A DNA stretch of 55,143 nt from Myxococcota bacterium (GCA_020630615.1 JAHDBA010000015.1:36-55178), one strand, 5' to 3'. Positions 19,477 through 51,206 are shown, numbered from the stretch's first letter. Notes: generated by a model from the letters alone, not told the origin. Numbers and translations: made by a program.

Positions 19477-21237
19477 TTAAGGAATGCTCACCGCATATAT
19501 CTTCACCGTGTCATGATAAGAGCTTCTATCGCGGTGTATGATATAATCCTGGGTTACAAGTGCGTGTGCACCAAACATCCGCCCTCCAGCACCGTGCCAT
19601 CGGAATGATTCCGGGTCTAAAAGCTCTGTCAGAACACCAAAAGTATTCTCTTCTATGCTCGCTAAACTCATGTCTGGTGTGACTACACCTCGCGACATTA
19701 TGATTATTCTGCCTGCATCCATGCAGGTGCTTGGACCGGACTCAAATACTGGCGTTGCACATCCATCGTAAAAAGGTTCGGCCGCAACAATGGAATTGTT
19801 GACAACTGTTATCTGCTCCAGTGTCGTTAAGTTAGAGTTAAAGAAGCTCTTTTCTAAATTGATTTGACTTTGCAGCTGCCAGGTACTGTCGATGTGCTGA
19901 AATATAAATAGGGTGCGGTCTCGAGGAATGCCGTTGTTACCAAGTGTCGCAACATTAACCCACAACTCGAGGGTATGTCCTCCCTCGGACATTGGCTCCA
20001 CAAACTGGAGGCGTGTCCTTGACGATGCAAAATGTGGTTCATGAACACCATCATGATCAACCTCGAGACGAAAATATCCATTGCGAGACCATCCGGATTC
20101 TGTTTCATGCTCATAGAGAGTTAACGATGCCCCTGAACACCTTTCATCATATCTTTCGCAGTCACCACGATCACCTCCACTAAATGCAACCAGATGTCTC
20201 CCGCTAGTATCGATTGCGAATGGCTGGCCAAACTCATACCCGACAACACTATTGTCCGGACTATCGACATAGGGGAAAAAGCTTGTCTTTTGACCAAATG
20301 AAGCTCCAGACAGGTCAAAACTATCAACATAACCGACACCGTTGCAAAAGTCAGCATCGAGCCCATTTAGGCAGTTGCTTTCTATCCCGAGCTCTTGAGC
20401 CGTGAAATATGCATCATAAGATACTAAAAGTGAATTTTGGGTAAGTTCGATCTGCTTAAAATATATTGAATGTTCTTCCTCCAACCAATCAAAGAGTACC
20501 CATTCACCGTCTCGGTAGTTGAAGACGTAGACGCGTTTTTCCCCCGCAGCAAATACAGCCAAGGTGTCACCGTACAGGGCAATTTTATCGCCAAAATTAC
20601 TCCCACTATCAGAAAAAGGACTCTTAATATAAGCAGTGCGTCTCCAATGTTCTCCTTCTCTTTCGAAAATAAAAACTGCACCTGCCCCCGGACAGTTTTT
20701 ATTATTGACATCACCATTGATGACAGAAGAGCAGGAATCGTCGTTTGGGGCAGCAACCGCTAGCCGGTTTCCATCAATACGGTTTTCAGCACCGAACTCT
20801 GGTGATGGACTACTGTAATCTAGGCCGTCAGCGGATAATTCCCACACATTAGACATCAATAAACATTGGCCGTTAAGACAAATTTCTTCATCAGACTCGC
20901 AATATACGGACAAGTCACACCGGTAACCGATGCAAGCATCACAAGAACCGCCGCAGTCAACCTGTTCTTCATCACCGTTTAAAATCCCATCCTGACAGCG
21001 ATTTTGTGTCGCTCTATTCAAATCGGAAGAATCGCGCCCCACATCATTATTAGATACAACTACATCACTGGACTCAACCACATCATTAGATTCAACGACA
21101 CTATCAGAGCTGATTTGGTCCAAATTTGACGATTCAACATTTTCTTCCGAACAATCGTTACCAAGTACCGCCAGTGTCGCCATGGCAAGCATACTCGTTT
21201 TAACGTAGTTTAAGAAAGCGGTAGTTTTTGTGTACAT
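19477..21237 (-). CDS. Secreted or lipid-anchored Cys-rich protein with FG-GAP-like propeller repeats
   Basis: Signal ending LGNDC, Ser/Val/Asp linker, CQDGILNGDEEQVDCGGSC module, and FG...LAVAAP...GAGAVFIF repeats. Confidence 0.75.
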   Translation of the reverse strand: MYTKTTAFLNYVKTSMLAMATLAVLGNDCSEENVESSNLDQISSDSVVESNDVVESSDVVVSNNDVGRDSSDLNRATQNRCQDGILNGDEEQVDCGGSCDACIGYRCDLSVYCESDEEICLNGQCLLMSNVWELSADGLDYSSPSPEFGAENRIDGNRLAVAAPNDDSCSSVINGDVNNKNCPGAGAVFIFEREGEHWRRTAYIKSPFSDSGSNFGDKIALYGDTLAVFAAGEKRVYVFNYRDGEWVLFDWLEEEHSIYFKQIELTQNSLLVSYDAYFTAQELGIESNCLNGLDADFCNGVGYVDSFDLSGASFGQKTSFFPYVDSPDNSVVGYEFGQPFAIDTSGRHLVAFSGGDRGDCERYDERCSGASLTLYEHETESGWSRNGYFRLEVDHDGVHEPHFASSRTRLQFVEPMSEGGHTLELWVNVATLGNNGIPRDRTLFIFQHIDSTWQLQSQINLEKSFFNSNLTTLEQITVVNNSIVAAEPFYDGCATPVFESGPSTCMDAGRIIIMSRGVVTPDMSLASIEENTFGVLTELLDPESFRWHGAGGRMFGAHALVTQDYIIHRDRSSYHDTVKIYAVSIP

Positions 21238-36319: not shown

Positions 36320-36524
36320 ACGCGTACCGGTTAAAAGATCTGCCTACTTTTGTCTATCCGTAATCTTTCATTTATTTATAAAAGATAGCTCCTCACCCTA
36401 CTTCCGAGGCTTGTCTCATTATTCTTCAGAAGATCACGCCAAAATGGAGGCGAGCGGCATACGACTCACGAGTCTTCTTCGGGCGACTTATTAGACCATT
36501 TGTAATTTGGATAGGAGCCAAAAC

Positions 36525-37643
36525 ATGAATTTCGTAAAAACAACACTATTTTCCACCGTGGCACTTGGGCTTGTTGCTTGCGGCGGCACAAATGCCCCTG
36601 AAGGACGCGATGGATCTTCCTTAATTGCAGATCAATCTGAGGCACACGATGAGGAGCGAGAAACGCTTTCTCCAGAGCCCACAAGGCCCGAAATTAACTG
36701 TGGAACTGGCACTGTCTTGGTTCATGACGAATGTGTTGTCGACCCACGTAGTGTTGAAGAATCAGAGCCAGCCCTCCAGCCTGAACCCGAAGTCGTTTGC
36801 GGTGCAGGGACAACACTTCGCAATGGAGTTTGTATTGCAGATGCTCCAAGTCAACCTACAGAAACAGTCGTCTCAGAGCCAACCTCAACAACAGTTGAAG
36901 AGTTGCGTGCAGATCATTTTATCCAATACTGTCAGGGCTTGTTGGATTGTGGATACATGCAAAATAAATCGGTAGCGGAGTGTACGAACGCATTATGGGA
37001 TGAAGCGGCCCTTCTCTCGCAGGACACCGGATGTTCATCAGCTCTCTACCAGTTTGGGGAATATACAAAGTGTGTAGGCCAAGATACCTGTGCCAATATC
37101 GCAATCTTCAATGAAACGGGTGAAGTACCTCTCAACTGCCTTGAAGAAGAGGCATTGGTCGAGCAAGGTTTCGACATTTGTCTCCCGGAGGGAGTCGAAA
37201 ACCGATTTACCCGGTGGGGAATCGGCGCGGGTGGCGACATTAACCTTGGCGTTGGTGGCAGCGTTGGTGTTGGCGTAGGCTGGGACAGTGAGGAAGGACT
37301 TCAAATCTCGATGACACCAAGTTACGGCGTATCCACCGAAGCGTCTAAGGCCATCCTTGATTATTGTTATGTTCACAGCTTTTGCGCAGCAATTGGAGAA
37401 AATGATAATCCGAATGTCCAAAGACCTGGCAGATGTGTGATGGAAAAATCAGCAGTTGCACGGGCTTTTGAAGAAACGGAGTGCCAAGCGTACACTGAGG
37501 CTCAAATTGCATACGACAACTGTCGGAGCGTTGCAGGCTGCAACTCAATCAATCAAGCATTCGCAGACGAAATCTGTATGGCAGAGCGACAGGAGCGACA
37601 AGAACAAGAAATACTCTGTACGGTTCAATCCATATTCAACTAG
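36525..37643 (+). CDS. Cys-rich lipoprotein of unknown function
   Basis: LVAC lipobox, two CGxGT...C repeats, two Cys-rich helical blocks and a Gly-rich segment; AGGAG RBS. Confidence 0.8.
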   Translation: MNFVKTTLFSTVALGLVACGGTNAPEGRDGSSLIADQSEAHDEERETLSPEPTRPEINCGTGTVLVHDECVVDPRSVEESEPALQPEPEVVCGAGTTLRNGVCIADAPSQPTETVVSEPTSTTVEELRADHFIQYCQGLLDCGYMQNKSVAECTNALWDEAALLSQDTGCSSALYQFGEYTKCVGQDTCANIAIFNETGEVPLNCLEEEALVEQGFDICLPEGVENRFTRWGIGAGGDINLGVGGSVGVGVGWDSEEGLQISMTPSYGVSTEASKAILDYCYVHSFCAAIGENDNPNVQRPGRCVMEKSAVARAFEETECQAYTEAQIAYDNCRSVAGCNSINQAFADEICMAERQERQEQEILCTVQSIFN

Positions 37644-39681: not shown

Positions 39682-40899
39682 TTAACCAAAGTCGTCGAAG
39701 GCAATCATGTCGTCTTCAACGCCCAAATCATGCAGCATGTTTGTCACTGCATTCAGCATCATTGGCGGCCCGCAGAGATAATACTCAATTTCTGTCGGAT
39801 CCTCATGTTCTTTTAAGTACTCGTCCAGAGCAACCTGATGCACAAAACCCGTTGGGCCAGTCCAGTTATCTTCCGGTTGTGGGTCTGAGAGCGCCAAAGT
39901 GTATCTGAAATTCGGGAACTCTTTCTCGATCTCGCGGAAGTCTTCTTCATAGAAGTTTTCAAGCGAAGAACGTGCGCCGTAGAAGAAATGCACTTTTCGC
40001 CCAGTCTTCAGGGTATGGAAGAGATGAAAAAGATGGGATCGCATCGGAGCCATGCCAGCCCCACCACCAATGTAGACCATCTCACGATCGGTATCTTTGA
40101 TAAAGAACTCACCATAAGGCCCAGAGAATGTAACTTTGTCACCAGGCTTCAACGAGAAAATATAGCTCGAGCACAGTCCTGGGGGAACATCCATCCCTCG
40201 AGGAGGCGGAGCATAACGAATCGTTGTCATAACCTTATTGCCCTCAGCTGGGTGGTTGGCCATCGAGTATGCACGGACCACTTCTGTGTCGACCACGGTT
40301 TCGTAATCCCACATTTTAAAGTTATCCCAAGCTGGACGGTACTCTTCACCGATATCGAAATCTTTGGAGTAATATGTTCCCTTAGGGACTTCAAACTGAA
40401 TGTAGCCACCTGCTTGAAAGTTGAGCTGGTCACCATTGTCAATCGTAAGGTTGGTCGCCTTGATGAAGGACGCCACATTATCATTGGATTCAACAGTACC
40501 CGTGAACTTCTTGATTGAGAAGATTTCATCGGGGACCTTAATGTCCATGTTCTCCCGAATTTTGACCTGACACGCCAGTCGAGTGCCTTCCTTTGCCTCA
40601 CGGCGATTAATATGGGTCTTTTCTGTGGGTAAAATTTCGCCGCCACCTTCCAACACTTTGCACTTGCACATTGCACAAGTTCCACCACCACCACATGCAG
40701 AGGGGACAAAGATTTTTTCATTGGACAATGCGGTGAGCAGTGTTCCGCCAGGAGCAACAGAGATTTCTTTCTCACCATTAATCTTAACCGTCACGTTGCC
40801 TTGTGCCACGAGATAACGGTTCGCAACAATTAGCCCTAAAGCTAAGAGGACGATAATTGATGTAAAAACCACAACACTGGCAATAATGCTAGAAATCAT
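39682..40899 (-). CDS. nqrF: Na+-NQR subunit F
   Basis: [12 protein letters not shown] [2Fe-2S] motif, [26 protein letters not shown], terminal DDFG. Confidence 0.97.
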
Positions 40900-41621
40900 T
40901 TTTCACCTCCAACAACACGTGCATGCAGATTGATCTTCTCAGTTTCACCGACTTGCTCCAATACCACTTGCTCTTGTCTTTCAGGGGCCTTCTCTTTTTT
41001 TAGATTGATACCCGCAAAACACATAAAACCCATCGCCATGAGGCCTGTGGTAATCATGGTAATTCCCAAGCCCTCAAGCCCTTTGGGCATATCGGAATAC
41101 GTGAGTTTCTCGCGAATGGCTGCCATCGCGATAATCGCAAGCCACCAACCGACACCTGAACTCGCTGAATACACCACAGTTTCTGTGAAGTTGTATTCTC
41201 GCTCAACCATAAAAAGACTCACGCCCAAAATCGCACAGTTCACGGCAATCAAAGGTAAGAAAATACCAAGCGCAGTGTACAAAGCGGGACTAAATTTCTC
41301 GAGAGCCATCTCTACAAACTGTACCATCGCAGCAATCGTTGCGATGAAACAGATGAAGCGTAAAAAACTCAAGTCAACACTCGCGAGTTCTGGCGAAACC
41401 CAGGCCAGTGCACCGGGCTCAAGTAAAAACTGGTTGACAATCCAGTTTGCAGGCCCAGTGATCACGAGCACAAAGATAACTGCAATGCCAAGTCCCATGG
41501 CTGTGTCCACACGCTTGGAAACCGCAAGAAATGAACACATCCCCAAGAAACTCGCGAGAAGAATATTTTCAATAAAAATCGAGGTGGTCGCAAGACCCAA
41601 AAGTTCGTTCAATACATCCAT
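40896..41621 (-). CDS. nqrE: Na+-NQR subunit E
   Basis: [22 protein letters not shown]; operon position. Confidence 0.95.
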
Positions 41622-41623
41622 GA

Positions 41624-42238
41624 TTATTCTCCTGAAGCTCCACCGAGTTCTTTTGACACCCAGATGATTAAACCAAGAATAATAAATGCCGCTGGCGCAA
41701 GCACCATAAGACCATTATTCACGTAGCCTGCGCGGTATGCAAACTCTGGAATGACAGTGAAACCAAAAACTGTTCCGCTTCCAAAGAGCTCACGCACAAA
41801 ACCGATGACGACCAAAACCCATCCGTAACCAAGGGCATTGCCGATGGCATCCCAAAGCGATGCGAGTGGACCGTTCGCCATGGCGAAGGCCTCTGCGCGC
41901 CCAAGAATAATGCAGTTGGTAATAATCAGACCAATAAAGACCGAGAGCCCTTTCGCCTGTTGGTACATAAAGGCGCTTAAGATCTGATCCACAAGAATCA
42001 CCAAGGTTGAAACGATCGCCAGCTGCACGATAATGCGAATCCGGTGAGGGATCAGATTGCGCAAAAGCGAGATCGTCATGTTCGAACCGCTTAACACAAC
42101 CAGAACTGCACCACTCATGATCAGCGCGTTCTTGATATCAACCGTCACCGCAAGTGCAGAACAAATCCCCAACACTTGGTATGCAATTGGGTTGGACTGC
42201 CAACTTGCTTCTTTTATTTGCTTTGAGATAGAGCCCAT
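41624..42238 (-). CDS. nqrD: Na+-NQR subunit D
   Basis: [25 protein letters not shown]. Confidence 0.95.
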
Positions 42239-42981
42239 TACGCCCCTCCCTTTTGTGCTTTGAAAAACTTCTCGTAGCGCTGTGGTGCGACCTTCGTCAT
42301 CTTGGTCACTCCATTGCCGGTAATCGTGGCACCACTCATTCCATCGACCATGTAGTAATCTTTAAGCTCCGCGGCAGCCGTTTTGTCTGCAACCTTACCT
42401 TTCACAACTTCAACACCTTGCAACATACCGTCCTTGTGAAGTCGCTTCCCAATGAAGTTGTTGGTGAACCACTCTGCCTCAATATTGGCACCCAGCCCCG
42501 GTGTTTCTTTGTGTTTATAAAACGAAATGCCTACAATCTCGTCGCCGTCGGGCTTGACGGCAAGAAAACCATAAAGCGAACCCCAGAGGCCCTTTCCAAC
42601 GACAGGGTAAGCATACGCTTGCGTTTCTCCCTTCGCGTTGACCTTTTTATAGAGCGGCAGCCCGACATTCAGGTCAAGCTTTTCACCCTTGAGAACTCCC
42701 GCTGACATCGAGGACATTCCTTTTGAGCTATCAATCATGCCAGAGCGGTCAACAACAAGCTCTTCAATATTTGATTGGTAGAGACTCGCAACTTTAGCGT
42801 CATCTGCGGTGCTCACTTCTTCAGCGAACCCCACCGCTTTCAGAATATTGCGTTGGCGGTCCAAAACCTTGTTTTGGTCCTGACGCTCACGCAAAGCTTC
42901 CGCTGCACCCGAAAGCAAGAGCGAGCAAATCACACATGTCACAACCGCAAAACCAATGATATAACCATTACTTTGTTTCAT
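42238..42981 (-). CDS. nqrC: Na+-NQR subunit C
   Basis: N-terminal TM, GKGLWG, ETPGLG, covalent FMN site SGAT. Confidence 0.95.
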   Translation of the reverse strand: MKQSNGYIIGFAVVTCVICSLLLSGAAEALRERQDQNKVLDRQRNILKAVGFAEEVSTADDAKVASLYQSNIEELVVDRSGMIDSSKGMSSMSAGVLKGEKLDLNVGLPLYKKVNAKGETQAYAYPVVGKGLWGSLYGFLAVKPDGDEIVGISFYKHKETPGLGANIEAEWFTNNFIGKRLHKDGMLQGVEVVKGKVADKTAAAELKDYYMVDGMSGATITGNGVTKMTKVAPQRYEKFFKAQKGGA

Positions 42982-44234
42982 CGTTTAGCCCTCCTCTTGA
43001 TCCACGACTGAACAACATAGTGGTCAATCAATGGAGAGAACACATTCATAAAGAGAATCGCAAGCATCATGCCTTCGGGATAAGCCGGGTTAATCGTCCG
43101 TATGATGATACAGAGCGCACCGATCAAGAACCCGTAGATCAAGCGTGAGGTTTTGTGAAAAGGAGAAGACACTGGGTCCGTCGCCATAAAGACCGCACCA
43201 AATGCAAAACTACCCATGACCAAATGCTCATACCAGGGCAGACGGAAGAAGTCGTTCACTTCTGAGCTACCACCAAAGCCGTTGAGCAAGAGCCCCATGG
43301 CCGCGCCGCCAGCAAAGACACCTACCATTGTGCGCCATGAACCGACTCCTGTCAGAATCAGAAAGAATGCACCAAAGGCAACGCAGGCAATCGAAGTCTC
43401 ACCGATAGACCCAGGGATGAAGCCCCAAACCATGTCTGAAACACTATACGTTGCGTGCAGATCTTGAATCGCATCAACACCCGGAACATTCTGTGCCGCC
43501 TTCGCCAACGCAGTTGCACCGCTGTATCCGTCTACTGCTGCTGCTTTACCATTGATAAATGCCTGGATTTTCTCAACAGCGATCGTTGTCCACGCAGCGG
43601 GCTCGAGACCGTTGGCCCCATTTATAAATGGTTTCGCGACCCAAACATCGCCAGAAAGCTGAGCCGGGTATGCGAAGAAAAGAAAGGCCCGGCCCGTGAG
43701 TGCAGGATTCAAGATATTCATCCCGACTCCACCAAAGACCTCTTTACCAATTACAACACCAAAACTGACACCCAAGACCAACTGCCACCAGGGAAGAGTC
43801 GGTGGTAAGATTAAGGGCATCAGCGCGCCCGTAACCAAGAAGCCTTCTGAAATCTCATGGCCGCGGACTTGTGCGAAGATTCCTTCCCACATACCACCGA
43901 TAAGATAGGTCAAAACCACCAAAGGCAATACATGTAAGAGACCCTCAAGGGTGCACTGCATCAAGGTGGCGTCCGTGACACCGATACTCAAATACGCATT
44001 TCTCCCGACATTGTACGTACCAAAAATGTAACACGGTAAAAGCGCCACCACGACCATAAAAATAAAGCGCTTGAGGTCCGTCGCATCGCGCATATGGGGT
44101 GCGTTGGCCGTTACGATAGCAGGTTTACGAAAGAAGGTGTCCGTCGCATTGATGAGGGCCTTGTTCGGAACCTTTCCAAAAAGAGCGCCTTCTTTGTTGG
44201 CTGCATCAACGATTTTTTCCCAGAATTTCCACAT
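42978..44234 (-). CDS. nqrB: Na+-NQR subunit B
   Basis: PH.RD..DLKR, KEVFGG.G.N.LNPAL, SGAT FMN site, GSIGETS, FMATDPVS, PEG.MLAIL. Confidence 0.96.
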   Translation of the reverse strand: MWKFWEKIVDAANKEGALFGKVPNKALINATDTFFRKPAIVTANAPHMRDATDLKRFIFMVVVALLPCYIFGTYNVGRNAYLSIGVTDATLMQCTLEGLLHVLPLVVLTYLIGGMWEGIFAQVRGHEISEGFLVTGALMPLILPPTLPWWQLVLGVSFGVVIGKEVFGGVGMNILNPALTGRAFLFFAYPAQLSGDVWVAKPFINGANGLEPAAWTTIAVEKIQAFINGKAAAVDGYSGATALAKAAQNVPGVDAIQDLHATYSVSDMVWGFIPGSIGETSIACVAFGAFFLILTGVGSWRTMVGVFAGGAAMGLLLNGFGGSSEVNDFFRLPWYEHLVMGSFAFGAVFMATDPVSSPFHKTSRLIYGFLIGALCIIIRTINPAYPEGMMLAILFMNVFSPLIDHYVVQSWIKRRAKR

Positions 44235-44237
44235 GGA

Positions 44238-45644
44238 TTAGCCCTCCTTCACGATGAGCTCTTTGCCCGATTCTACGATTTCACCAAGCTCAATCTTCGA
44301 CGGACACACAAAGGTGCACAGCCCACAGTCTGTACAGTCGCGAATCCCAAGCTGCTCCATCTTTTCGATGTCTTTCGCCAATGCTGCTTTGAAAACCAGG
44401 TTTGGCATCAGCTCAACCGGGCAAACCTTAATGCACTGCCCACACTGTACGCATCCACGATGCTCTCCATTGTTTGAAGTGGTGGCTACTTGCTCTTTGC
44501 CTTTCATTAAAGCAGAGGTCCACAACTTAAAAGTTGTCAGGCGGTTACCCCCCGGCCTAAAGAAGACAAAAGGAGTTCGCTCACGATCTTCTGGCAAGAT
44601 ATTTAGAGTGGTCTCTGTAAGCCCCATATAGTGCTTCGCATCGATTTTCTTGCCTCGCAACAAGCCCCCAGCGACCAAGCGTGTGTCGGTACTCGAAGTC
44701 GCCTCACCACTGGGTACGCCGGATGCACTCTGCAACGTGGCTACCGGCAAGCCCACCGGCCCTCGCGCATGCCCGCGTTTGGAAGCGCCTTCACCCGCTA
44801 CGGCGTACGTCCGCTCGTCGCGCAACTCTCCGGTGCGAACCACATGACCAATGTCAATCAACGTTTCAAGGTCAACGCAAGCCACACACTCGCCCGCACC
44901 AAGGGGTTGTGTAAAGTAACTTTGGACTTCAGCACTACCTGCAGGAAAGAGCGTCTCGTCAACTTCTTTGTAGGCGACCCCAGATACCGATTTCAACTTT
45001 GAATCCGTATTTGACGACACACCCGCGACAACATCAAATCCAGTGCGCTTTAGAACTTCTAAACCGAGAAGTGCGTTCTCGATGTTCCCTTCCAGGGTTG
45101 CTCCAGTGGGCACAAGATGAGGCTCACTCTCAACGAAGCTCACATGGAAACGAATCAGGGAAGGTACCGGCAAGTCATGCCCATGAATATCTTTTGGCGC
45201 TGGCTCACCGGGCACCGGCACGATGCGCTTGAAAGGATGGCTCAAGAAACGCGACCACAGCCCCGTCTTCACGAGATGAGCGATGGTTGCTTCTGCACCC
45301 AGGCTCTGTACTTGCTCGGGTGAGAACGATCCAAAGGAAGTCTTCGCCTCCCCGCTGCGCTCAATAACAACGGCTTCAAGCACTCTTCGCGGCCCGTATT
45401 CAATCGCCTTGACACGACCACTGCACGATGAAAGATAGCGATGATTTTCGTTCTTCTTATTAAAAAAGAGCAAATCGCCAGCGGCGACATCGTCGCCAAC
45501 CTTCACGACAACTTTTGCCTTAAAATCTTTCGTGCCTGAGGGATGAAAACCCACGGTCTCACTCGAGAGAACCCCGAGATCATTTTCGCCAACGCCATGA
45601 GCGATTCGAAATCGCTGGCCACCTTTGATGCGGACTTTTTCCAT
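44238..45644 (-). CDS. nqrA: Na+-NQR subunit A with intact C-terminal 2x[4Fe-4S] motifs
   Basis: First gene of the nqr operon. VKVGD.V.AG..LF, G.RRVL, TGLW.....PF and PAG motifs; C-terminal CVQCGQCIKVCP and CTDCGLCTFVCP. Confidence 0.9.
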   Translation of the reverse strand: MEKVRIKGGQRFRIAHGVGENDLGVLSSETVGFHPSGTKDFKAKVVVKVGDDVAAGDLLFFNKKNENHRYLSSCSGRVKAIEYGPRRVLEAVVIERSGEAKTSFGSFSPEQVQSLGAEATIAHLVKTGLWSRFLSHPFKRIVPVPGEPAPKDIHGHDLPVPSLIRFHVSFVESEPHLVPTGATLEGNIENALLGLEVLKRTGFDVVAGVSSNTDSKLKSVSGVAYKEVDETLFPAGSAEVQSYFTQPLGAGECVACVDLETLIDIGHVVRTGELRDERTYAVAGEGASKRGHARGPVGLPVATLQSASGVPSGEATSSTDTRLVAGGLLRGKKIDAKHYMGLTETTLNILPEDRERTPFVFFRPGGNRLTTFKLWTSALMKGKEQVATTSNNGEHRGCVQCGQCIKVCPVELMPNLVFKAALAKDIEKMEQLGIRDCTDCGLCTFVCPSKIELGEIVESGKELIVKEG

Positions 45645-45849: not shown

Positions 45850-47562
45850 ATGCCCTTATTCGTACTCGTGTCATGCCTTGGAGCCTTGCTTATCGGATAT
45901 CGCTTCTACGCGCCCTTGCTCGAGAAGTCCTTCGGGATTCGTAAAGACGAGAACGTACCCTCACACACTCAAGCCGATGGAATCGACTTTGTCCCCACCG
46001 AAAAACATATCCTCTTTGGCCATCACTTTGCTTCGATTGCCGGCGCAGCCCCTATTCTAGGGCCCGCCATTGCTATTGTTTGGGGCTGGCTCCCCGCATT
46101 GATATGGATTGTCTTCGGGGTGATTTTTATGGGAGCCGCTCATGATTTTGGTGCTCTCGTATTGGGTTTGCGCCATGAGGGGCGGTCCGTTACCTCCGTC
46201 TCATCAACACTCATTTCACCGCGTTTTGAAAAGTTCTTTATGCTGAGCGTTCTCTTTCTTCTATGGATGGTGGGCGCAGTCTTCACAGTTGCCATTGCAT
46301 CACTCTTTGCAAAGAACCCTGAATCGGTACTTCCAGTCAATATTGAAATTGTTATCGCCCTTTTGATCGGCATTTGGGCGTTTCGCTACAAAGGTAGTAT
46401 CACCCTTCCATCTCTTGCCGCGCTCTTGCTCGTGTACGCCTTGATTGTTGTGAATGTACAAAGTGGGGTCTTTGTCCCCGCTGCTGGATCTCTGCTCAGA
46501 AACGCGCACTTTTGGATGTTTGCCCTTCTCGCATATGCTTGGATCGCATCGTGCCTGCCTGTTTGGCTTTTGATCCAGCCCCGAGATTTGATCAACTCGC
46601 ATCAACTCCTCTTGGGCCTGGTACTGCTTTACATCGGGCTTTTCTTGACGCCTTTAGAATTCCATGCGCCTGCAATCGGAAGCCTTTCGGACTTACCCTC
46701 GCTCTTCCCAGTTTTGATGAGTACGATCGCTTGTGGCGCAATCTCAGGCTTTCACGGCCTCGTGAGTTCAACGACCACAAGCAAGCAGTTGAATGCGAGT
46801 GAAGATGCCCGGCCAATCGCCTATGGAAGCATGCTGCTTGAAGCCACACTTGCAATACTTGCAACTTTCGCAGTTGCCTGTGGGGTGATGAATGACGGTC
46901 ACACCCATGTTTTCAGTCTTTATTATGATGCGCACGCCACCCTTCACGCTCAAGCGTCAGAACTGCCCACGGTTGCAAAAGCATTGTCAGCATTTATCAA
47001 TGGTTCGGCATCCCTTTTGACCTCAATCGGATTCTCTTTTGAATTGGGGAAAACCTTTGTCACCGTTTTGGTTGTTTCGTTCGCTGCGACAAGCTTAGAC
47101 ACGGCTGTTCGCATTCAGCGTCTCATCGTCGGCCCCTTGATGCGCGAAGCGCGCATTCCTGGTTCTGACAATCGGTGGTGGGTCGGTTTTCTATGCGTGG
47201 CCTCCATCGGAGCTCTCGTCTATTTTGATCTGGAGCAAGGTGCAAAAACATTGTGGCCTGTCTTTGGGGCAACCAACCAACTTCTTGCAGCATGCACCCT
47301 TGGCATGTGTGCAATCTATTTGAAGACGAAGGGTCGGCGCCACCTTCGTTATTCCCTCCCAGCAATTTTAATGTGCTTCGTTACCATCTCTGCACTCGTT
47401 GTTCAGATCGTCCGTGACCTTCAACTTGGCGCGTTACACACTGCGTTTTGCGCATGCCTGATTCTCTGTGCCAGCTTTCCGATGCTTTTCCTCTTTCGTA
47501 AACGTTGGACCCATGAATCGCATGAGAACCTTGAGAACGAAGAGGAAAAAGACTTAAGCTAA
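45850..47562 (+). CDS. cstA: Carbon starvation protein A family transporter
   Basis: LFGHHFASIAGAAPILGP, HDF, PVWLL.QPRD, IACGAISGFH, TSLDT, LWPVFG.TNQLLA. Confidence 0.93.
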   Translation: MPLFVLVSCLGALLIGYRFYAPLLEKSFGIRKDENVPSHTQADGIDFVPTEKHILFGHHFASIAGAAPILGPAIAIVWGWLPALIWIVFGVIFMGAAHDFGALVLGLRHEGRSVTSVSSTLISPRFEKFFMLSVLFLLWMVGAVFTVAIASLFAKNPESVLPVNIEIVIALLIGIWAFRYKGSITLPSLAALLLVYALIVVNVQSGVFVPAAGSLLRNAHFWMFALLAYAWIASCLPVWLLIQPRDLINSHQLLLGLVLLYIGLFLTPLEFHAPAIGSLSDLPSLFPVLMSTIACGAISGFHGLVSSTTTSKQLNASEDARPIAYGSMLLEATLAILATFAVACGVMNDGHTHVFSLYYDAHATLHAQASELPTVAKALSAFINGSASLLTSIGFSFELGKTFVTVLVVSFAATSLDTAVRIQRLIVGPLMREARIPGSDNRWWVGFLCVASIGALVYFDLEQGAKTLWPVFGATNQLLAACTLGMCAIYLKTKGRRHLRYSLPAILMCFVTISALVVQIVRDLQLGALHTAFCACLILCASFPMLFLFRKRWTHESHENLENEEEKDLS

Positions 47563-47578: not shown

Positions 47579-48517
47579 ATGCGTGAGACACCAAAAGACA
47601 AAGACCAGGCAGGAGAGAACAACCCCGCCCAAAAGCGTAAATCCAGTGTCGCGGGCACTGAGGCACGACAGCAAGACACCAAATATTCTCAGGTGCAATC
47701 GTTAGCGCATTTAAAAAGAACTGGCATTTTAAACACGCTAAGCCCCCAAGAAGCGTATCTCTGGTCACGCTTAGAACATCAACAAACCCTCACAACACTG
47801 GTGTCGACGACTCCTTTTGACGCGCATGAATTAGAAACAATGCTCGAAAGACTTTTGCGCTTGAATGTTGTTCAAGACAATAGAGCAGACCTCGGCGGCC
47901 CTCAGCACGAAGAGGGCATTGTCGATGAAGTGCCCTGGCGCAATTTATCGCCCGGCGAGCGTATTCGACGCGCGCGTAGCGCAGACGCCAAAGCGTTACT
48001 CATGATGTGCCGCGATCAAAACCGCGAAGTGGTTAACGCAATTTTAAACAACGAATGCTTTGGCCTCAATCACGCACGCACACTTGCGCGTCATCATAAG
48101 GGAGTTGCTGGGCTTCAGGCACTTCTCAACAAAGCAGGCGTTGCTCGCAACACTTCGGTGCGACACAACCTGCTCTTAAACTCGGGAGCGGACGAGCGCA
48201 TCTACGATCAACTTGCAAAAACGCTATCTTTAAAAGACCTTTATTTACTGACAACAAATCGGAGCTACCCAGGCAAAACTCGAGTTTGGGCTACCAAAGC
48301 ATTCAATCAGGCATTCAAAGTCTCACCTGCTGCGCAACAAGCAAAGTTTATTCTTCGCAACGATGGCCGGTGCTTCTCTCAAATGAAAGGCCTTCGCGCT
48401 ACGCCACAACTCGTAAGCGCAATCGCAAAGCACAAACCTTTCTCAAAAACGCTCAGAGCAAATCTGAGGCGTTGGTCTGGGATCTCAAGTGCAGCAAAAG
48501 ATCGATTGCTGGGGTGA
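47579..48517 (+). CDS. Hypothetical protein (winged-helix-like N-terminal part plus helical repeats)
   Basis: LSPQEAYLWSRL...LERLLRLNVV segment followed by a basic helical region; 312 aa. Confidence 0.7.
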   Translation: MRETPKDKDQAGENNPAQKRKSSVAGTEARQQDTKYSQVQSLAHLKRTGILNTLSPQEAYLWSRLEHQQTLTTLVSTTPFDAHELETMLERLLRLNVVQDNRADLGGPQHEEGIVDEVPWRNLSPGERIRRARSADAKALLMMCRDQNREVVNAILNNECFGLNHARTLARHHKGVAGLQALLNKAGVARNTSVRHNLLLNSGADERIYDQLAKTLSLKDLYLLTTNRSYPGKTRVWATKAFNQAFKVSPAAQQAKFILRNDGRCFSQMKGLRATPQLVSAIAKHKPFSKTLRANLRRWSGISSAAKDRLLG

Positions 48518-49957: not shown

Positions 49958-50084
49958 TTTCTCCTTTCTACGTCAAACGCCTGATTTATGAACACTCCCG
50001 GATCCGATTCAACCGAAAGAGATGTGTGTTGACTATGGCTTCTCGTCAACAATGAATCTCGGGAAGCCGCTCAAGGAGCCAGCA

Positions 50085-51206
50085 ATGATTAATAGAGCTC
50101 GACTTTGCAAAACGCTCATTTTGAAGTGGTGTAATATTCATTTGCCTTCTGGTGTGTGCGTCGCATTGTGCCTCAGCCTCGTCATGCTTGGGTGCGACCC
50201 AGATTCCAGCAAGACACAGAACAACACACTCGAAGAGAGTGAGGTGTCACCGCCTCAGAACCACAACAACAATGAAAGCACTAAGCATTGCGTGATGGAT
50301 GGCGTTAACAATGCTGATGAGAATCAGGACTGCGCTGAAAAGGAAGACCTGCAAGGTACATGCTTTGACGGTATTCAAAACCAGAATGAAGAGGCAATTG
50401 ATTGCGGTGGCGAGTGCGAAAGATGCCCTGCACCCGATGAGTTCTTTGCAGACTTGAGCTCTGGGTTTCAACACAATTGTGCGGTGCAGTCAGACGCGCA
50501 CCTTCGCTGTTGGGGCAAAAATGAATTCGGTGAGAGCGATGTACCAGAGGGCTCGTACACCCAGGTTAGTGCCGGCTTTAACCACACATGTGCCCTGGGC
50601 GAAGATCGGAGCATTTATTGCTGGGGAGACAACTCCTATGGGCAGCGCGACTACCCTGCAGGACACTATCAAGCAATCGGCGCGGGTGGTTATCATAGCT
50701 GTGCCTTGGACGAGTACGGAACGATTGAATGTTGGGGGAAAAACTCTGACAACCAACTTGGAAAACCGAGTGGCTCCTTTGTTGAAATCAGTGCAGGCTT
50801 TAATCACACGTGTGCTCTTGATATCGATGGTCATGTACGGTGTTGGGGAGGTGCCGACTCACTACAAAATACTGAGGCGAATACGTACACGAGTATCAGC
50901 TCAGGAAGCTACCATGCTTGTGCGATTCGTGACGACCAAGGAATTGATTGCTGGGGACAGTACTCCAAAAGAAGTACTCCGCGAGGGACCTTTCAAAGCG
51001 TGAGTGCAGGCCATCACTATACCTGTGCGCTGACGACGGACGCATCAATTCACTGTTGGGGAGACACGCCTTTCGCACGCAACACAGAGTTTGAAGGCAA
51101 ATACGTGAGCGTGAGTGCGGGTGCGTACCACGCATGCGGTGTCAAAATCAATGGCACCCTTCAATGTCTAGGCGAGAACCCTTTTGGGCAACTCTCTTTC
51201 CCTTAA
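50085..51206 (+). CDS. RCC1/BLIP-II repeat lipoprotein with Cys-rich module
   Basis: MLGC lipobox, CFDGIQNQNEEAIDCGGEC, and seven S(A/S)GxxHxCA...CWG-type repeats of about 37 aa; AAGGAG RBS before ATG 50085. Confidence 0.88.
   Translation: MINRARLCKTLILKWCNIHLPSGVCVALCLSLVMLGCDPDSSKTQNNTLEESEVSPPQNHNNNESTKHCVMDGVNNADENQDCAEKEDLQGTCFDGIQNQNEEAIDCGGECERCPAPDEFFADLSSGFQHNCAVQSDAHLRCWGKNEFGESDVPEGSYTQVSAGFNHTCALGEDRSIYCWGDNSYGQRDYPAGHYQAIGAGGYHSCALDEYGTIECWGKNSDNQLGKPSGSFVEISAGFNHTCALDIDGHVRCWGGADSLQNTEANTYTSISSGSYHACAIRDDQGIDCWGQYSKRSTPRGTFQSVSAGHHYTCALTTDASIHCWGDTPFARNTEFEGKYVSVSAGAYHACGVKINGTLQCLGENPFGQLSFP

Follow-up and report, generated by a model that had tools for sequence, protein, structure and literature searches.

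We analysed a 55,143-nt stretch of DNA from a Myxococcota bacterium (GCA_020630615.1 JAHDBA010000015.1:36-55178; the whole stretch is called the window, and positions are counted from its first letter), which carries a six-gene operon for an ion-pumping NADH:quinone oxidoreductase (NQR). With fair confidence, we read this NQR as complete and probably functional, with a first subunit, NqrA, that keeps the 2x[4Fe-4S] ferredoxin domain of RnfC and has lost the site for flavin mononucleotide (FMN) and NAD; the predicted clusters would form a side branch of the pump. The gene and its relevant segments, with residues given as amino acids (aa), are:

44238..45644, minus strand: nqrA, 468 aa, ATG start; an NqrA-type body followed by a C-terminal RnfC-type ferredoxin domain
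44241..44492, minus strand: C-terminal ferredoxin-like domain, about aa 385-468, with matches to TIGR01945, 7zc6_C and Pfam Fer4
44418..44453, minus strand: motif 1, CxxCxxCxxxCP, CVQCGQCIKVCP, aa 398-409
44301..44336, minus strand: motif 2, CxxCxxCxxxCP, CTDCGLCTFVCP, aa 437-448
45231..45266, minus strand: NqrA-type segment TGLWSRFLSHPF, aa 127-138, at the position of the RnfC glycine-rich FMN/NADH loop

The nqrA translation contains ...HRGCVQCGQCIKVCPVELMPN...IRDCTDCGLCTFVCPSKIEL..., with both CxxCxxCxxxCP motifs complete. Across six frames of the 55-kb window, the pattern C..C..C...CP was matched only twice, both times in nqrA, and at least one CxxCxxCxxxC appeared in just 14 of 200,000 shuffles of the NqrA protein, so that a chance origin of the motifs was ruled out. 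Four Pfam dicluster models exceeded their gathering scores over aa 396-451 (Fer4_7, 34.6 against 27; Fer4_9, 32.6 against 27; Fer4_8, 33.1 against 27; Fer4_10, 28.9 against 25.5), which identifies a ferredoxin-type domain of the 2x[4Fe-4S] kind. With two complete motifs, the protein does not fit the literature's description of NqrA as a subunit lacking redox cofactor sites.

By its body, fold and operon the window protein is an NqrA and not an RnfC; only the last ~80 residues are RnfC-like. The Pfam search matched NQRA_N (52.7 bits) and NQRA_2nd (43.2 bits; cut-off 25 each) and reported no match to NQRA_SLBB (PF11973) or Complex1_51K (PF01512). Vibrio cholerae NqrA (7xk3_A) was aligned by phmmer over aa 44-468 (E 2.5e-46), and among solved chains RnfC (7zc6_C) matched aa 393-466 alone (E 3.7e-15). 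Likewise, the rnfC model TIGR01945 matched only aa 391-464, scoring 90.7 bits against a cut-off of 245.95. The two features of RnfC are thus split in this protein: the two [4Fe-4S] motifs of the C-terminal ferredoxin domain are present, and the glycine-rich FMN/NADH site (Complex1_51K, GGAGFP) is absent. In the alignment of the flavin loop, RnfC rows read GIVG[ML]GGA.FPT, NqrA rows read G.W......P, and the window reads TGLWSRFLSHPF. An AlphaFold2 model, built cofactor-free from a 37-sequence alignment, reached a predicted local distance difference test score (pLDDT) of 87 and a predicted TM score (pTM) of 0.89. Its best fold match in Foldseek was the solved NqrA 7xk3_A (E 2.7e-36, TM 0.87/0.92, root-mean-square deviation (rmsd) 2.7 Å), as against TM 0.66-0.74 and rmsd 5.0-5.9 Å for RnfC chains. 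At the motif sites V. cholerae NqrA reads '...DRSMVPIGNYEKVMP...' and '...DEEDLALCTFVCPGK...', with the last two of the eight Cys left. A sequence-only reading of this DNA had described the two full motifs (at coordinates off by 1-2 nt), an NqrA-type N-terminal part with 'TGLW...PF', a normal nqrF and a mere remnant of the motifs in Vibrio NqrA. All four statements hold: 'TGLW...PF' is aa 127-138, aligned with the RnfC G-[LM]-GGA-x-FP loop, the Vibrio remnant is borne out by the HMMER alignment to 7xk3_A, and nqrF is listed below. The window NqrA also has two insertions, at 45166-45204 (aa 147-159) and 44704-44721 (aa 308-313), each lacking in 86% or more of the two-motif rows and in 98% or more of the Cys-free rows; the second lies within a low-confidence loop of the model (pLDDT <50, aa 315-318).

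Six contiguous minus-strand genes, running from 45644 to 39682, make up a complete nqrABCDEF operon with nqrA first and nqrF last. The genes that follow nqrA are:

42978..44234, minus strand: nqrB, 418 aa; NF003756 469.1 bits against a cut-off of 414, TIGR01937 438.8 against 349.9; SGAT
42238..42981, minus strand: nqrC, 247 aa; TIGR01938 189.4 bits against 144; Pfam FMN_bind; SGAT
41624..42238, minus strand: nqrD, 204 aa; NF006777 275 bits against 235, TIGR01939 267 against 244.85
40896..41621, minus strand: nqrE, 241 aa; TIGR01940 302.2 bits against 247.55
39682..40899, minus strand: nqrF, 405 aa; TIGR01941 591.5 bits against 295; Pfam Fer2, FAD_binding_6 and NAD_binding_1

Each of NqrB, C, D, E and F exceeds at least one NCBIfam NQR equivalog cut-off. 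The cofactor features expected of Na+-NQR are present: the flavin-attachment motif SGAT in NqrB and NqrC, the Cys of NqrD in 'GICSAL' and 'TNCIIL', those of NqrE in 'GMCSFL' and 'VNCAIL', the 2Fe-2S Cys of NqrF, and an ApbE flavin transferase elsewhere in the genome (238 bits, contig C42); the NqrD/NqrE Cys pairs and the NqrF Cys are what we take to be the relevant cofactor residues. A profile search of the genome found no rnfC or rnfB over cut-off, the best rnfB match scoring 34.1 bits against 68.7. A mis-called RNF complex was ruled out on this basis, together with the presence of nqrF and the scores of NqrB to NqrF. Among the NqrB residues that passages of PMC10643135 name for quinone and riboflavin binding, alignment with V. 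cholerae NqrB showed G140/G141, F159, T162, F342 and D346 kept and N156 replaced by S. NqrE carries a charged C-terminal tail of ~35 aa past the 200-position nqrE profile; its length resembles that of the 250-position model NF002200 (298.3 bits, under the cut-off of 351).

The assembly comprises 2.83 Mb in 48 contigs and is 93.5% complete; relatives of the same family and order bear the NCBI labels Myxococcota or Myxococcales. The 49-kDa subunit of complex I (NuoD) was not found in this 93.5% complete genome, and a haem-copper oxidase subunit I (COX1) is encoded in it. Since NuoD was not found and ApbE and the haem-copper oxidase are present, the NQR seems to be the NADH dehydrogenase that provides energy coupling in an organism respiring oxygen. 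The window also contains genes for a class I ribonucleotide reductase.

Relatives of the window NqrA were collected in three ways. A word-index search gave 72 proteins, with two motifs in 50 (11 of these RnfC-like or intermediate), one in 5 and none in 17. A HMMER search of 1.84 billion 50%-identity representatives gave 145 matches at E<=1e-30, a sample that favours query-like proteins; among the best 150 matches, 143 proteins were new, comprising 69 with two motifs, 7 with one and 67 with none. A genome scan with one genome per species yielded at least 540 confirmed relatives among at least 599 pattern matches. Its best 80 loci contained 63 two-motif, 10 one-motif and 7 no-motif forms, and complete, ordered nqrA-F was found in 53 of them (39, 8 and 6, respectively). 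Of the other 27 loci, 21 end no more than 333 nt past the last nqr gene, and in 6 the missing nqr genes are absent despite at least 1.4 kb of further DNA. On contigs of sufficient length, two-motif nqrA genes are generally part of an operon whose last gene is nqrF. The matches listed include Myxococcota, Desulfobacterales, Elusimicrobiota, Marinamargulisbacteria, Cloacimonadota, Gemmatimonadota and others. The eight-Cys NqrA is not rare: it is shared by a large, multi-phylum, deep-branching portion of the NqrA family, of which the window gives an ordinary example.

In the window's phylum, 38 of 201 genomes sampled had a match (a tally that includes the unpublished genome G195). Of the genomes from its order, 8 carry the two motifs, contig ends truncate 2, and in 1 (G109) NqrA is Cys-free; no motif was present in any of the 20 matches retrieved from further orders of the phylum, nor in L095. 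A genome of ~0.6 Mb from the same order (G094; 2 contigs, 87% complete) carries a whole NQR, with an eight-Cys NqrA and nqrF (L088, L130). The order also includes genomes of 0.3-0.5 Mb with no match. Three of its members with genomes of 1.4-2.2 Mb have nqrABC with no nqrDEF following (L007, L008 and L009, from G135, G079 and G133) and nqrF on a separate contig (L128, L129, L131), which points to a split operon. At 492-527 aa, the NqrAs of these three are longer.

Phylogenetic trees were built with the ferredoxin-domain columns removed, keeping the trait out of the topology. In a FastTree of 144 rows, the 65 Cys-free representatives all grouped within a single 70-tip clade (support 99) that also took in four rows with one motif and one with two, and every NqrA branch deeper than this clade carried two motifs. 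A careful IQ-TREE analysis (LG+G4, 61 rows, 200 bootstrap trees) placed RnfC, P0062, P0187 and a group of P0209 with P0063-65 in succession before NqrA proper (100/100). NqrA proper then split into 13 two-motif rows, including the window, and 37 others (90/79), and 16 Cys-free rows were nested within a clade of 22 (96/97). The two-motif forms were monophyletic in 0 of the 200 bootstrap trees, and the quick tree gave the same picture; these trees have a distant outgroup, query-like sampling and many rows with unusual composition. The eight-Cys NqrA is a retained ancestral state and the Cys-free textbook NqrA a derived one, because the Cys-free forms are nested inside the iron-sulfur forms. Whatever the topology, retention is the only sensible reading, because the homologous Cys are shared with RnfC.

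The sequence-only reading had raised, as possibilities, an intermediate between RNF and NQR and an ancestral-state NQR. The latter agrees with the trees, in which the RnfC outgroups and all deep NqrA branches have eight Cys. The former stands for subunit A alone, which is in an older state, and fails for the complex as a whole, given that NqrB to NqrF pass NQR cut-offs, the quinone-site glycines of NqrB are kept and no RnfB exceeds its cut-off. A better intermediate than the window is the P0065 type, a deeper two-motif branch found by the metagenome scan at one locus, L124, because its B subunit (L124:2448-3536, 362 aa) scores above the RnfD subfamily cut-off (245.3 against 207.05) yet below those for NqrB, in an operon that ends in the start of nqrF. 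No copy of the P0065 type was found in five Desulfobacterales and other genomes, in each of which the genome's own NqrA was the best match. A gene for a SufS-like cysteine desulfurase is located just upstream at L124.

The pattern of Cys loss bears on whether clusters are bound. A census covered 272 full-length sequences, which combine the P and L sets, are partly redundant and include ~13 RnfC-like rows. All eight ligand positions were Cys in 162 of the 272, and conservation of the eight Cys extends to both near and distant homologues. The pattern ------CC was found in 52/272, ---CCCCC in 13/272, CCCC---C in 6/272 and other, more degenerate patterns in 39/272. As is usual in ferredoxins, a cluster would draw three of its ligands from one motif, with the last Cys of the other motif as its fourth. 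By this rule, the 19 relatives with exactly five Cys (13 and 6 of the two patterns) each have one complete ligand set; two further forms, P0192 ('CCCCCC--') and L012 ('CCCCC---', cut by the contig end), do not fit this picture. Judged from these sequences, such single-cluster ligand sets are hard to explain unless the clusters are really bound.

These observations leave very little probability for the motifs being relics on the way to loss, which would hold free thiols, zinc or disulfides in place of a cluster. The Cys-free forms do show that the domain folds and docks in the absence of clusters, the organism respires oxygen (COX1), and pLDDT is lower in the ferredoxin domain, all of which would suit a relic. 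Against it, 162 of the 272 relatives retain all eight Cys and both Pro at 28-47% identity to the window protein, 19 of the 21 partly decayed forms with at least five Cys still have a complete four-ligand set for one cluster, no other part of the protein is conserved as well as the ferredoxin domain, and the Pfam dicluster models exceed their gathering scores.

For a pump with two clusters predicted to be bound in NqrA, we propose the following path. Electrons from NADH would enter at FAD and the 2Fe-2S cluster of NqrF and pass to the 2Fe-2S cluster of NqrD/E and the FMN of NqrC, then to the FMN of NqrB, riboflavin in NqrB and quinone at the rim of that subunit, with cation export coupled to the flow. 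One NqrA cluster would lie within electron-transfer distance of the NqrB riboflavin, as judged from the homologous placement of RnfC on RnfD; in passages of PMC9588780, the distance from RnfD riboflavin to the nearer RnfC cluster is 11.7 Å. The clusters would thus branch off riboflavin, mainly holding the docking domain together; they may also keep one electron in reserve while quinone is reduced in its two one-electron steps, and would not serve as a wire to a further substrate.

Should the clusters instead lie on the main path, electrons would, in contrast to Vibrio, run from riboflavin through the NqrA clusters to a quinone bound by NqrA or between NqrA and NqrB. Quinone binding by NqrA was proposed in older work, and many carriers of the eight-Cys form are menaquinone users, according to passages of PMC6349859 and PMC2702500. 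We nevertheless consider this route very improbable: the quinone-site glycine pair and F159 of NqrB are conserved in the window, and the cryo-electron microscopy (cryo-EM) data, as excerpted from PMC10643135, place the quinone on the rim of NqrB, 11.6 Å from riboflavin. In addition, Bacteroidota NqrA is Cys-free (0 motifs in L044, L048, L066, L069, L071 and L080) and the NQR of Prevotella uses menaquinone (passages of PMC10739449); quinone type therefore does not track the clusters.

A second electron port, as raised by the sequence-only reading, is unlikely in our estimate but deserves more weight than a relic. Here the clusters would wire the riboflavin of NqrB to NqrA's cytoplasmic surface, where a soluble carrier such as ferredoxin or flavodoxin could supply quinone with electrons that need not cross the membrane, or draw electrons from the pump. 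The same two clusters carry electrons between riboflavin and a cytoplasmic site in RNF, according to passages of PMC9588780 and PMC11889175, and the eight Cys are kept across deep divergence. Immediately downstream of nqrF in 12 Desulfobacterales loci, and encoded on the other strand, is a gene like the catalytic beta chain of ferredoxin:thioredoxin reductase (FTR) (for example L039:14082-14834; PF02943, 70.7 bits). This neighbour is, however, limited to one related lineage, and no partner gene recurs across phyla: when 1470 flanking open reading frames (ORFs) from the 80 loci were clustered, apbE was the only neighbour to do so, the rest being lineage-bound synteny of Desulfobacterales. Citrate synthase is upstream in 24 loci; this and the FTR-like gene may simply reflect gene order shared by related genomes. 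There are single-cluster forms of each kind (13 and 6), and a two-step wire is impossible in one of the kinds or both. Genomes of Desulfobacterales with such an NqrA also have a second RnfC-sized ORF (448 and 431 aa) that matches the ferredoxin domain; because this is probably a separate RnfC, a ferredoxin port is not obviously missing there. Moreover, only two positions outside the ferredoxin domain, G327 and F361, are specific to two-motif forms, and so no new pocket in the iron-sulfur forms is suggested. That NQRs of this older type have two cytoplasmic ports, with NADH served by NqrF and a soluble low-potential carrier by the NqrA iron-sulfur wire, is by the same token doubtful. If true, one membrane complex would join the NADH and ferredoxin/flavodoxin pools to quinone, and subunit A would gain a redox function.

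A canonical pump with a side branch remains the simplest reading, because the quinone site is kept and the flavin/NAD site is gone. Two-motif and Cys-free NqrA have in common G128, W130 and P137 from what was once the flavin loop, and in each type conservation peaks in the C-terminal domain (0.59 for two-motif and 0.56 for Cys-free forms). Because the domain is conserved in both types, with just the two specific positions and no cross-phylum partner, a structural or buffering role of the clusters, which we infer from these comparisons, is favoured over a wire to a new substrate.

Several points weigh against this interpretation. Cluster binding in NqrA is itself predicted, the distance between cluster and riboflavin comes from excerpts of the RNF papers and not from the window, and pLDDT over the ferredoxin domain drops to 53-85. 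The window subunit also appears divergent, missing every NCBIfam NqrA equivalog cut-off (NF003761, 289.4/450; TIGR01936, 205.6/321.05; NF003759, 198.7/505). The genome-scan patterns were taken from the motif region, biasing that sample to the motif, the HMMER homologues are biased to the query, and the rows were grouped by motif, which makes a within-group '100% Cys conservation' circular. Finally, strict conservation of eight Cys in several phyla, in aerobes and anaerobes, might be more than scaffolding would be expected to need, and fits a redox role.

Passages of PMC4014512, PMC12174285, PMC9588780 and PMC11889175 present NqrA as without cofactors or as having lost its Cys, and in the portions concerned a 2014 evolution study, structure papers of 2022-2025 and a 2025 review assign it neither a cofactor nor a function. 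Other papers mention an nqr operon with no remark on subunit A in the passages at issue (PMC4046663, PMC2702500, PMC6349859, PMC10052568). No description of an iron-sulfur NqrA was found in searches of the open full-text literature. The sequences are public; the form itself is without description in the searchable literature. There is a corresponding annotation gap: the NCBI NqrA models miss iron-sulfur NqrAs, and because the equivalog cut-offs are missed, NCBI names P0029, P0030 and P0032 '4Fe-4S dicluster domain-containing protein', while JGI calls similar ones NqrA.

The window holds an otherwise ordinary six-gene NQR with an ancestral A subunit, in an older, well-conserved form common to many uncultured and sulfate-reducing bacteria. 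This gives an order of events from RNF to NQR in which the gain of NqrF and the loss of the flavin/NAD site came first and the clusters disappeared later, step by step. The natural two-, one- and no-cluster variants could be used to ask what subunit A does.

Other features of the window include three ORFs with no Pfam family at E<=1e-5, at 19477-21237 (586 aa), 36507-37643 (378 aa) and 47579-48517 (312 aa), the last directly downstream of a CstA gene (45850-47562). A 394-aa RCC1-type repeat protein is encoded at 50022-51206 (RCC1_2, 184 bits, 5 stretches).

The closest solved counterpart is NqrA of the V. cholerae Na+-NQR (PDB: 7XK3, 8A1U, 4U9O), which is likewise the first gene product of nqrABCDEF and shares with the window protein the four-domain fold, 26% identity, the NqrA-type replacement of the flavin loop and the same partner subunits. 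It differs in having two of the eight Cys and in being described as cofactor-free in the passages cited above, whereas the window NqrA has all eight. A further parallel is the Desulfobacula toluolica Tol2 complex, for which passages of PMC5109826 report a subunit of the RnfC/NqrA family without NADH-binding domains, paired with an NAD-binding input subunit and with its acceptor unknown; compared by description, it differs in that an enlarged RnfB is reported and not NqrF (PMC5109826). RnfC itself (Clostridium tetanomorphum 7ZC6, Acetobacterium woodii 9ERI, Azotobacter vinelandii 8AHX) has the homologous C-terminal ferredoxin domain with two CxxCxxCxxxCP motifs, but the window NqrA lacks its GGAGFP loop and Complex1_51K domain and belongs to an operon that ends in nqrF. 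For the proposed role of the clusters, the nearest likeness is to complex I, whose off-pathway clusters (N7 and N1a, for example) lie beside the main electron path and have been proposed to play structural or electron-buffer roles; as their subunit context is unrelated, the likeness is one of analogy only.

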